The notes under the pieces were generated by a model that had not been told where the DNA came from, did not search any database, and saw only the letters and a program-made list of their open reading frames with translations. DNA of 36,764 bases, taken from the NCBI GenBank assembly GCA_030646805.1, contig JAUSKZ010000001.1, forward strand, positions 1 to 36,764, in the 5' to 3' direction. Made by a program: the position numbers and the translations under genes. This stretch comes from Candidatus Daviesbacteria bacterium. Its GTDB lineage: Bacteria; Patescibacteriota; Microgenomatia; Daviesbacterales; UBA10151. Below, in pieces: positions 29,569 through 30,996 of this stretch (position 1 is the first letter of the stretch; each line of letters begins with the position of its first letter).

Positions 29569-29654
29569 TGCCTAGGAAGCTTATAAGGACTTCGTCATTG
29601 CGACAGTTCCGGTCGATAAGTCGACCGGAATAACTATCTAAAGCCAGATTCTGT
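29569..29654 (-). repeat. copy A of rnpB 3' end interrupted by a 56-nt hairpin
   Basis: TGCCTAGGAAGCTTATAAG[56 nt, 29588-29643]CCAGATTCTGT versus intact TGCCTAGGAAGCGTGTAAGCCAGATTCTGT at 30598-30627. Confidence 0.85.
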
Positions 29655-29707
29655 AGCCACCACAAACCTGGTATGGGTATAATACTTTATCAACATTAGA
29701 GACAATC

Positions 29708-29748
29708 TTGACAGGCATGTATGACTTACGTACAATACTTATACATGC
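29708..29748 (+). promoter_or_regulatory. TA operon promoter with overlapping inverted-repeat operator
   Basis: TTGACA (29708-29713), 17 nt, TACAAT (29731-29736); GCATGTAT (29715-29722) / ATACATGC (29741-29748). Confidence 0.75.
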
Positions 29749-29990
29749 AAACATTAAATATTTCTCTACCCACAGAGTTGGTTAAAAGAGTCGATCTCCA
29801 AGCTAAGAAAGAATACAAAAACCGTTCTGAGTTGATGAGAGAGGCTTTAAGACTTTATCTAGTAGATCAAGACGAATGGATGGAGATTTTTAAATCAGGA
29901 GAAGAAGCCATGAAGAAGATGGGCATCAGGAGCGAAGGGGACATTAATGATATAGTTTATGAATTTAGGCACGGCAAAAAGGTCCGCTAG
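29745..29990 (+). CDS. ribbon-helix-helix (CopG/NikR-like) antitoxin
   Basis: MQTLNISLP..LVKRVD..A...NRSELMREALR; ATG at 29745 lies downstream of the promoter whereas 29721 lies inside it. Confidence 0.88.
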   Translation: MQTLNISLPTELVKRVDLQAKKEYKNRSELMREALRLYLVDQDEWMEIFKSGEEAMKKMGIRSEGDINDIVYEFRHGKKVR

Positions 29991-30513
29991 AGTAGTCATT
30001 GACACTAACGTCCTTATTTCCGCTTTAGGGTTTGGAGGCAAACCTCGAGAAATATTAATTCTGGCTACTCTTAGGAAAATCCAAGCGGTCACTTCAGCGG
30101 TACTTCTAGCAGAGCTACAGGAAGTAATTAATAAGAAATTTCCTATATTAGAGCCAAAACTCGACTTAATAGTCAAAAAAATAACCAGGAAGTTTATTCT
30201 CGTCCACCCAAAAACAATTTTAAAGGTGCTGAGAGACGAAGACGATAACAGAGTTTTAGAAGCCTCTTTAACAGGCAAGTGTGACTATATCATCACAGGA
30301 GATGAAGCTCCCGCGGGCTTACGCCCGGGGTATCTTCTCCCCTCAGCTCAATGGGAGCGGAATCCTTCCGAAGCGGAAAACTTTTCGCATTCATCCATGG
30401 GCTTACGCCCAGGGTTTTCTGCGAAGGGGGATAAAGATCTTTTGGATTTAGCCACTTTCAAAGGTATTAAAATCCTTACTCCTAAACAGTTTTTAGAAGA
30501 ATTTTGTGCCTAG
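29959..30513 (+). CDS. PIN-family toxin (PIN_3 type) carrying a 43-aa insertion
   Basis: VVIDTNVLISA, RDEDDNRVLE, YIITGD[insert]KDLL, ILTPKQF; start uncertain. Confidence 0.9.
   Translation: MNLGTAKRSARVVIDTNVLISALGFGGKPREILILATLRKIQAVTSAVLLAELQEVINKKFPILEPKLDLIVKKITRKFILVHPKTILKVLRDEDDNRVLEASLTGKCDYIITGDEAPAGLRPGYLLPSAQWERNPSEAENFSHSSMGLRPGFSAKGDKDLLDLATFKGIKILTPKQFLEEFCA
30304..30432 (+). mobile_element. 129-bp non-autonomous hairpin element (IS200/IS605-end-like or REP-like MITE)
   Basis: Two subterminal GGGC-TTAC-GCCC hairpins (30315-30326, 30399-30410), GAT at both junctions, GC-rich, splits the TGD/KDLL motif. Confidence 0.75.
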
Positions 30514-30588
30514 GAAGCGTGTAAGGACTTCGTCCTTGCGATAGTTCCGATCGATAAATCGATCGTAGTAACTATCTAAAGCCAGATT
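30506..30588 (-). repeat. copy B of rnpB 3' end interrupted by a 56-nt hairpin
   Basis: GTGCCTAGGAAGCGTGTAAG (identical to 30597-30616)[56 nt, 30526-30581]CCAGATT. Confidence 0.87.
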
Positions 30589-30597
30589 ATTGTGGAG

Positions 30598-30996
30598 TGC
30601 CTAGGAAGCGTGTAAGCCAGATTCTGTTACTCTTCCAGATTATCTCCATAAACTGAAAGATTGATGAAATCTATCTTCAATATGATTTTTAAAGTCACAC
30701 TGACCAGGTTTTAACTGGTGCTCCTGATTTGAGTTATTGGCCGAGCAAACCAACTCAATCTAGGATTGCAGCGGGGAGGATTGCCTCCCACTTCGCCCTT
30801 ATGGGCTCCGCGGGACCTACTTTCTTGCGATTTCGGCGTTTCACTCCTTCGATTACTCTCAGGATTCGTCACTGTTACTCTAACTGGGTCTTACGACCTC
30901 CGGCTTACACCGGACACCCTGCTCTATGCTGTCTGGACTTTCCTCCCTGAAGTTAAGCTTGCGCATACTTCAGGGTATCATCCGACTTCCTAGGCA
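30598..30996 (-). ncRNA. rnpB: RNase P RNA
   Basis: P1 TGCCTAGGAAG/CTTCCTAGGCA, P3 CCCTGAAGT/ACTTCAGGG, GAGGAAAGTCC, GTGAAAC, GGCAATCCT...GCAA, AGATAGAT, ACAGAATCTGGCTTA; TAAAAT box just upstream. Confidence 0.95.

Follow-up and report, generated by a model that had tools for sequence, protein, structure and literature searches.

A probably mobile hairpin element in duplicated 3′ ends of the RNase P RNA gene of a Candidatus Daviesbacteria bacterium

Why would the 3′ end of the RNase P RNA gene occur three times in a row, twice split by the same insert, on either side of a toxin–antitoxin (TA) gene pair? The question is raised by the rnpB locus of a Candidatus Daviesbacteria bacterium, which lies in a stretch of 36,764 nucleotides (nt) of contig JAUSKZ010000001.1 (assembly GCA_030646805.1); this whole stretch is referred to here as the window. 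An initial annotation, made from the sequence, had interpreted the arrangement as an integron-like or hairpin-based cassette array that targets rnpB and is mobilised in trans. The anatomy that it described was confirmed by our analyses, while its interpretation had to be largely revised. The insert, which we named element E, is most likely a small, non-autonomous, strand-specific hairpin element, present in low copy number and dispersed in this bacterial family, and the TA genes between the copies are most likely a one-off, local accident and not the cassette of a dedicated array.

Two interrupted copies behind an intact rnpB gene

The gene, its terminal segments and the two extra copies, or modules, are located as follows (CM, covariance model; R1 and R2, the two models used).
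30597..30993, minus strand: rnpB, bacterial type A RNase P RNA (Rfam RF00010, model positions 1-367, 99.2 bits, E-value 1.3e-30)
30614..30627, minus strand: resident segment 'a', ACAGAAUCUGGCUU, J2/4 and P4 3′ strand (RF00010 alignment, repeat family D4)
30597..30616, minus strand: resident segment 'b', CUUACACGCUUCCUAGGCAC, P1 3′ strand and gene end (RF00010 alignment, repeat family D2)
30506..30588, minus strand: copy B, trailing module (sequence and repeat search; CM R1 53.9 bits, CM R2 60.6 bits)
30526..30581, minus strand: element E of copy B, 56 nt (fold -22.3 kcal/mol, z -2.66)
29568..29654, minus strand: copy A, second module (sequence and repeat search; CM R1 45.6 bits, CM R2 49.4 bits)
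29588..29643, minus strand: element E of copy A, 56 nt (fold -26.6 kcal/mol, z -3.07)

The resident gene is complete from the 5′ to the 3′ strand of P1 in the RF00010 alignment and, as a full-length match with CR-I and CR-V, contains both GAGGAAAGUCC and ACAGAAUCUGGCUUA. A scan of the window at the Rfam gathering threshold gave no match because rnpB, at 99.2 bits, misses the gathering score of 100 by 0.8 bit. In relatives with an internal module (see below), rnpB reached only about 61 bits against RF00010 (L008 and L009); standard annotation will miss or truncate such genes. ARAGORN found neither tRNA nor tmRNA genes over the window. Read in the rnpB sense, the gene ends with ACAGAAUCUGGCUU ('a') followed by ACACGCUUCCUAGGCAC ('b'), and the target of the element, CUU^A, is the 3′ edge of the resident 'a'.

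The last 30 nt of rnpB recur twice in direct orientation, at 30506-30588 (copy B) and 29568-29654 (copy A). The repeat search of the window returned an 88-nt direct repeat (29563-29650 and 30501-30588, 89% identity), three copies of the 20-nt P1 3′ strand (starting at 29568, 30506 and 30597) and two of AAGCCAGATTCTGT (starting at 29641 and 30614). Copy B, 8 nt away from rnpB (30589-30596), has the 56-nt element between a partial 'a' (AAUCUGG, 30582-30588) and a 'b' (30506-30525) identical to that of the gene. In copy A the 56-nt element stands between a full 'a' (ACAGAAUCUGG, 29644-29654) and a 'b' (29568-29587) with the allele TTAT, where the gene and copy B have GTGT. Both are broken at the same base, after AAG on the plus strand (CUU^A in the rnpB sense), with AAG at both junctions, just as the initial annotation had described. 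In copy B, E reads in the rnpB sense UAG, the hairpin hp1 (GAUAGUUACUAC, apical stem, GGAACUAUC), CGCAAG and the mini-hairpin GAC-GAA-GUC, with CUU on either side. The lower stem is the same in copy A, and the apical stem is changed pairwise (CCGGUCGA/UCGACCGG versus CGAUCGAU/AUCGAUCG). Copy B, with a 'b' identical to that of the gene, appears to be the younger of the two, and copy A, diverged in 'b' and in the apical stem, the older; the earlier suggestion that copy A is a foreign or older allele agrees with this.

A 24-nt pattern of the insert matched twice in the window and never in 100 shuffles, and the rest of the 685-kb, 49-contig assembly contains no full-length insert. A third copy of E, in a short form, is located at a site without RNA gene on contig C20 of the same genome (G000, about 290-320, L245). 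It reads CUUUAG-AUAUUUAUAU-CGCAAG and is accompanied by its own flank complement and direct copy (CAAGAUCUU), the same flank-copy architecture that was found in relatives (see below). In both window modules the inverted and direct flank copies are minimal (AAG and CUU), which explains why the insert looked to the earlier reader like a clean 56 nt bounded by a 3-nt repeat. A minimal insertion of this type would break rnpB; here it is confined to the spare a-b copies behind the intact gene.

We considered whether the locus could be a chimeric join made by the assembler through the repeats of 20-88 nt. The assembly is a metagenome bin of 49 contigs and three short repeats meet at this locus, as such an error would have it. 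However, Logan contigs of run X1, whose reads are probably those of the assembly, covered 29400-30343 and 30368-30788 with 0 differences, the first interval spanning copy A and its two flanks, the second copy B and the 3′ part of rnpB, so that both junction regions assemble independently of the given contig. In addition, the two modules differ at 11% of their positions, in a paired fashion, and comparable trailing modules exist at 7 other loci. An assembly artefact is, hence, extremely improbable.

Dispersal, architecture and covariation of element E

The module was searched for in relatives and beyond. BLAST of copy A against 61 related genomes, followed by reading of the matches, found it adjoining rnpB in G023, G011, G045 and G001 in the form (ACAG)AAUCUGGCUU-UAG-hairpin-CGCAAG. 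Among 401 genomes of the class, 9 loci matched a search pattern, and 7 of these were real. One metagenome scan, for the GACGAAGTCCTTA form, returned 0 loci; another returned 21, of which 11 were real and 10 due to chance (L166, L179 and eight copies of one unrelated open reading frame, ORF). These eight loci (L168-L170, L173, L182, L183, L185 and L186) share a near-identical ORF start that matches by chance (AATCTGGCTTTAGATTCAGTCCAGTTTTCGCAAG) and were discarded as unrelated to rnpB. With an over-loose pattern, a scan of genome contigs gave 118 stretches, nearly all of them chance matches in unrelated bacteria, L089 and L120 being real, and none of 3 matches among viral contigs had the hairpin. 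Finally, CM R1 and CM R2 were run over the 96 genomes of the family.

Once L178 and L181 had been merged with G417, and L184 and L089 with G453, 23 rnpB loci with the module were counted, 15 internal and 8 trailing, this window included. In the internal layout (P2′-a-UAG-hp1-CGCAAG, complement of 'a', short loop, a-b) the module is a closed long hairpin in J2/4, just ahead of the true P4 strand. In the trailing layout the whole gene a-b is followed, after 0-11 nt, by AAUCUGGCUU-UAG-hp1-CGCAAG, the mini-hairpin and CUU-b′. The 8 nt between copy B and rnpB had been likened to an empty cassette; the spacing is as described, but such a reading does not hold, since the other trailing modules also lie 0-11 nt after rnpB. 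A single module without cargo was present at 22 of the 23 loci, and two modules, or more than 11 nt between gene and module, are found only in this window. CM R1 placed rnpB-linked modules in 10 of the 96 family genomes. At L171 (1603-1670) an intrinsic terminator (AAAAAUCCCCCG-AUAA-GCGGGGGAUUUUU) directly follows the trailing module, which suggests that transcription of rnpB runs through the module there.

The J2/4 linker of the resident rnpB has 19 additional nt that include AUAAUCUGG (plus strand CCAGATTAT, 30635-30643). The latter is identical to the partial 'a' of copy B (30582-30590), and the rnpB of G011 has ACAGAUC in the equivalent linker. These extra motifs are possibly scars of earlier internal modules.

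The initial annotation had proposed a system that targets rnpB, and a specificity for this gene could not be maintained. CM R2, a model of the core alone (CUUUAG-AUAGUUAYUAC-(stem-loop)-GGAACUAU-CGCAAG) made from 26 cores, gave 65 matches with an E-value of at most 1e-5 in 35 of the 96 family genomes, with 1-5 long-form copies in each. According to ARAGORN, a tRNA gene lies 7-20 nt downstream of the module at 10 loci (Thr 7, Val 2 and Ala 1); at 9 further loci the downstream tRNA was recognised by eye only. Different tRNA-Thr genes carry E in different genomes. Other copies were found in terminator-like stems (L230 and L281), before start codons (L277) and antisense near a tRNA gene (L284). 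E is thus a dispersed repeat, which the initial annotation had named among the findings that would speak against its proposal. This applies in part, as a bias towards structured-RNA genes persists. In three genomes (L289, L291 and L285) E stands upstream of one conserved, apparently structured sequence (...GGTTTTTCCCCTGA...CAGGTRGG...), which may be another non-coding RNA or a riboswitch.

Well-preserved copies share one architecture: a copy of the target that ends in U, then UAG-hp1-CGC, the complement of the last 3-12 nt of that copy, a linker and the intact target, which continues with A. The linker is usually a C-GAA-G mini-hairpin, such as GCGAAGC, GUGAAAC or GACGAAGUC. In tRNA genes the break lies after U8 (CCUU^AGCUC) or after position 13 (AGCUU^AGUGG), and the upstream copy begins with tRNA position +1 or a few nt ahead of it. 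The complement matches the upstream copy and not the gene; specifically, L220 has GAGGC, where the copy reads GCCUC and the tRNA GCCCC. The outermost pair varies with the target, being C-G, G-C in L228 and U-G in L229 and L234. Among 69 regular-expression candidates, about 12 of them chance matches, the left flank was CTT, TTT, CAT, GTT, TAT or ATT in 54. An automatic flank tally of these candidates, which is rough and undercounts diverged copies, assigned a complement of 5 bp or more to 32 of them and a direct copy of 8 nt or more to 19. Tandem modules at one target without cargo were present at tRNA-Val in L286 and also in L229, which means that a rebuilt target can be hit again. Re-insertion at a rebuilt target is the simplest source of the two consecutive modules in this window.

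The hairpin itself is under selection. Across 26 distinct long-form cores, standard pairs were present in 93.7% of the cells and in 83.8% in shuffles, and 0 of 500 shuffles reached 93.7%; when the 3′ partners were slid, paired cells dropped to 33-41%. The lower stem of hp1 is invariant, with an asymmetric internal loop (UAG-AUAGUUAYUAC...GGAACUAU-CGC), and the apical stem varies by compensatory changes: 6 of the 7 apical pairs change on both sides and 6 of the 10 lower-stem pairs show no variation. Read in the RNA-gene sense, most apical loops are C-GAA-G, GNRA or CUUG. These data show the hairpin to be strand-specific, with a conserved lower part of the kind that a protein would read. Its conservation does not separate a role as single-stranded DNA from one as RNA, and folding energies gave no strand decision, as sense and antisense differ little (sense better in 11 of 20, equal in 9 of 20). 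Against 4227 Rfam models the region 29300-31300 matched nothing but RNase P at an E-value of at most 1.

Such a structure could also be a functional RNA module, in which hp1 and the flank pairing serve as a putative selected signal for processing, folding or protein binding in the rnpB transcript and in tRNA leaders, the spare P4 and P1 strands giving alternative pairings and DNA mobility being secondary. Every tRNA or rnpB copy with a duplication is in the RNA-gene sense, as are the GNRA, CUUG and GAA loops; 7 genera have E at tRNA-Thr, the trailing copy of L171 has a terminator behind it, and the complements to the invariant P4 3′ strand stay paired through differing bulge positions (ACAGAUCUGU, ACAGUUCUGU and ACAGAUUCGU). 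However, any copy at all is present in only 35 of 96 genomes, no Rfam family other than RNase P was matched, and the antisense, terminator and start-codon copies listed above do not fit a leader signal. A version restricted to the rnpB transcript was dropped once the same hairpin appeared at tRNA genes and elsewhere. The distribution within one genus, given next, also speaks against an RNA role, and we consider this explanation distinctly unlikely.

Movement of E and the enclosed toxin–antitoxin genes

In genus g63, rnpB is empty in five genomes (G210, G184, G401, G169 and G248). G458 has a 67-nt internal insert in an rnpB whose flanks are otherwise identical to those of G169, and G453 and G461 have trailing modules with two 'b' alleles in swapped order. 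The first 'b' of G453 carries 10 nt (CAAAAATTTC) that resemble the flank after the matching allele in G461 (CAAAAATTCTC). With rnpB in one genus empty five times, occupied internally once and trailed by a module twice, E has been both gained and lost. This patchiness speaks against a functional RNA module. The five empty genomes already imply normal RNase P function without the hairpin.

No tyrosine recombinase or Y1 transposase was detected in the window with PF00589 and PF01797, the only recombinase families searched; for these, the earlier statement that the window has no integrase was upheld. The single PF00589 match of the genome is on contig C8 and its two PF01797 matches are on C20 and C7, the window contig being C13. 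The latter are:
G000 C20:4242-4916 (L245): RayT-like HUH/Y1 gene (PF01797)
G000 C7 (L246:1062-1727): RayT-like HUH/Y1 gene (PF01797)

Both proteins (224 and 221 amino acids, aa) have the HUH (HTH/HFH) and YIHLNP motifs, and their genes are set among housekeeping genes, adjoining folD- and glyA-like ORFs. The number of RayT-like genes was 2 in G000, 2 in G023, 1 in G011, 8 in G463 and 0 in G442. The E motif was not found in the flanks of these genes at L245-L248. As judged by their motifs, the RayT-like proteins are candidates for moving E in trans, and no more.

Between the two repeats lie only a ribbon–helix–helix (RHH) gene and a PIN gene, preceded by a promoter:
29708..29736, plus strand: predicted sigma-70-like promoter, TTGACA-17-TACAAT (11/12 consensus matches, consensus match alone)
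29745..29990, plus strand: RHH (CopG-type) antitoxin gene (Pfam RHH_1, E-value 8.8e-10)
29959..30513, plus strand: PIN_3 toxin gene (Pfam PIN_3, E-value 1.6e-18)
30304..30432, plus strand: in-frame GC-rich insert in the PIN gene, 129 nt or 43 aa, between ITGD and KDLL (homologue comparison)

The longest ORF of the antitoxin starts at 29721; the ATG at 29745, downstream of the -10 box, is probably its start codon. The order is that of a type II TA system, with RHH directly upstream of PIN and the two genes overlapping by 32 nt, and ORFs, Pfam domains and the promoter consensus bear out the earlier description of the interval. The stop codon of PIN (TAG, 30511-30513) is indeed inside copy B. Since PIN homologues (135-148 aa) end 2-10 residues past QFLE, the C-terminus of this PIN is uncut and within the normal range. 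Like VapBC-like type II systems, the pair has RHH_1 and PIN_3 domains, overlapping genes and its own promoter; unlike them, the predicted toxin bears a 43-aa in-frame repeat insert beside the last conserved acidic motif. This insert is absent from a relative, in which a contig of run X2 joins 30300 to 30430. In the sample it has about 10 times the depth of its flanks, and partial copies of it lie on contigs C27 and C1 of the same genome as the window. It is a second repeat element, unrelated to E. Similar peptide stretches were seen in other ORFs of G441 and G002.

Are these genes the cargo of a cassette? According to such an explanation, the hairpin-bearing copy of the rnpB 3′ end would be an attachment site, TA a true cargo and the enzyme would act in trans; a circular 'b'-cargo-'a'-E unit would recombine with CUU^A of rnpB, supply a new 3′ end and push older units outward. 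The layout fits it twice over (gene-a, new 'b' ... a-E, old 'b'), and so do the different 'b' allele of copy A, the swapped 'b' alleles of G453 and G461, with CAAAAATTTC of the former resembling the flank of the latter as if imported, and the HUH/Y1 genes of the genome. Likewise, in the relative of run X2, which has similar TA genes, similarity extends no further than the edges of copy A (29654) and of the copy B hairpin (30525). On the other hand, 22 of 23 rnpB loci are one module with 'cargo' of at most 0-11 nt, and tRNA 5′ ends and other sites have this hairpin too, there with duplications upstream rather than downstream. PIN homologues exist in 22 of the 95 other family genomes, and neither rnpB nor module motifs were found within about 1.5 kb at any of the 19 loci examined. 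Moreover, neither searched recombinase family is encoded in the window, the hairpin has no attC-like core, and no joint skipping TA or a module was seen at this organism's depth in the run contigs, where the joints listed belong to rnpB of other organisms. We regard a cassette or integrative system as unlikely. The TA pair would be either an old neighbour of rnpB that was later enclosed or cargo that arrived with a module, of which the second is the less probable but still deserves some weight.

Proposed mechanism and relation to known systems

With modest confidence, we favour the reading in which the insert is a copy of an element like a REPIN (a hairpin of repetitive extragenic palindromic, REP, sequences) or a MITE (miniature inverted-repeat transposable element) that inserts at U^A within or next to structured-RNA genes and is encountered solely where the target exists again as a rebuilt copy. 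E would land after U, mostly at YUU^A, in loci of high expression and on their sense strand. Each insertion has two copies of the flank, one inverted (3-12 nt) that extends the hairpin and one direct (3-30 nt) that rebuilds the target. In essential RNA genes the survivors would be only those events that leave one uninterrupted gene: at tRNA sites a broken partial copy would remain in the 5′ leader, and at rnpB a closed hairpin would stay in J2/4 (internal) or behind the gene (trailing). E may move as single-stranded DNA, an HUH/Y1 (RayT-like) enzyme may move it in trans, and the flank copies may arise from fold-back priming or template switching. RHH and PIN would then be a passenger or former neighbour caught between two insertion or recombination events, whose order in this genome we infer. 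Of the hairpin-based mobility in trans that had been proposed initially, this retains a strand-specific hairpin with a compensatory stem, mobile behaviour and HUH/Y1 genes in the genome, and gives up the cassette array.

Several observations weigh against this reading. A simple insertion does not explain three 'a-b' copies, nor TA lying between two of them, and the end of the X2 homology at the module edges could equally mean that TA and module edge travel as a unit. The flank-copy architecture is unlike the product of known Y1 transposition, and 1-5 copies per genome are far below typical REP/REPIN families. G442 has E matches but no PF01797 match, and the RayT-like genes are bordered by GC-rich palindromes of the CCGAGGTGT / CCCCACCC type, not by E; these may be a separate REP-like family. 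No circle junction, excision product or empty site for this organism was seen in the contigs of four runs, which cannot show rare variants. The GNRA and C-GAA-G loops in the RNA sense and the L171 terminator are as compatible with an RNA role as with a DNA role. Lastly, the invariance of AATCTGGCTTTAG(A) and TCGCAAG in the metagenome matches was partly imposed by the search patterns.

Among known systems, E most resembles REP/REPIN-RAYT, as a short, non-coding, strand-specific hairpin with a conserved stem that is dispersed and has no gene of its own; single-copy RayT-like genes with PF01797 stand among housekeeping genes in this genome too. It differs by its 1-5 copies per genome, against tens to hundreds, and by insertion in or next to RNA genes with inverted and direct flank copies. 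A RAYT gene would be flanked by its own repeats, whereas other palindromes are found here. A GTAG/CGTC head is typical of REP elements and was not seen in E. Like the ends of IS200/IS605 elements and palindrome-associated transposable elements (PATEs), E is a single-strand hairpin that would insert 3′ of a short specific sequence, with a Y1 enzyme acting in trans, and two direct hairpins can bracket cargo, as around TA here. IS200/IS605 elements and their miniature derivatives are not known to make a target duplication; in contrast, each E copy has a duplication of 3-30 nt and an inverted flank copy, and neither tnpA nor tnpB lies between the hairpins.

With elements that integrate into tRNA or tmRNA 3′ ends, the locus shares a direct repeat of the RNA-gene 3′ end at both borders (three copies of 20-30 nt here), a replacement 3′ end for the gene, an older allele displaced outward and possible tandem arrays. 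Unlike them, it has no integrase between the repeats, its units are mostly about 90 nt and cargo-free, the repeat is split by a hairpin and this hairpin also occurs at tRNA 5′ ends. Integron cassettes likewise have a folded single-strand hairpin site (attC) in direct orientation with a gene between two sites. However, there is no intI, attI or Pc promoter here, the site is not confined to an array and a single gene pair is enclosed, cargo being present at 1 of 23 rnpB loci. The R″/R′ cores of attC are RYYYAAC ... GTTRRRY; on reading the sequence no such cores were found in E, which ends CUUUAG ... CGCAAG, and the integron-like interpretation was abandoned. Rickettsia palindromic elements, cyanobacterial small dispersed repeats and short tandemly repeated repetitive (STRR) sequences in rnpB are tiny repeats tolerated inside structured-RNA genes. 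The Rickettsia and cyanobacterial repeats occupy tolerant helices or loops and the target is not rebuilt, whereas E hits the P4 3′ strand or the tRNA D-arm and position 8 and the gene is rescued by a spare copy.

For these bacteria, Lui et al. 2021 (PMC8172020) mention RNase P RNAs that are diverged. Our literature search, the supplementary RNase P figures of that paper aside, found among the papers listed none on rnpB 3′ duplications, on rnpB as an integration site or on REPIN/RAYT in these bacteria. A bolder idea, to which we give only a low probability, is that E represents a new single-strand (HUH/RayT-driven) or RNA-mediated element. It would home to structured-RNA genes with strong transcription, on their exposed sense strand (tRNA position 8 or D-arm, rnpB P4 3′ strand), would survive there because its insertion chemistry copies the target (fold-back priming, then direct copy), and would occasionally carry genes between two hairpins, RHH/PIN being the first example.

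Few genes are known to be as constrained as those of RNase P RNA and tRNAs. A hairpin that moves repeatedly into the P4 3′ strand or the tRNA D-arm, where its built-in spare copy makes it tolerable, would represent an unusual lifestyle for selfish DNA in tiny, streamlined genomes. E also accounts for several annotation oddities, such as rnpB genes below the Rfam cut-off, insertions of 60-100 nt and partial pseudo-copies of tRNA 5′ or rnpB 3′ ends. If an HUH enzyme moves it, E would offer a single-strand insertion system that is compact and defined by its sequence, with a target rule that can be read.

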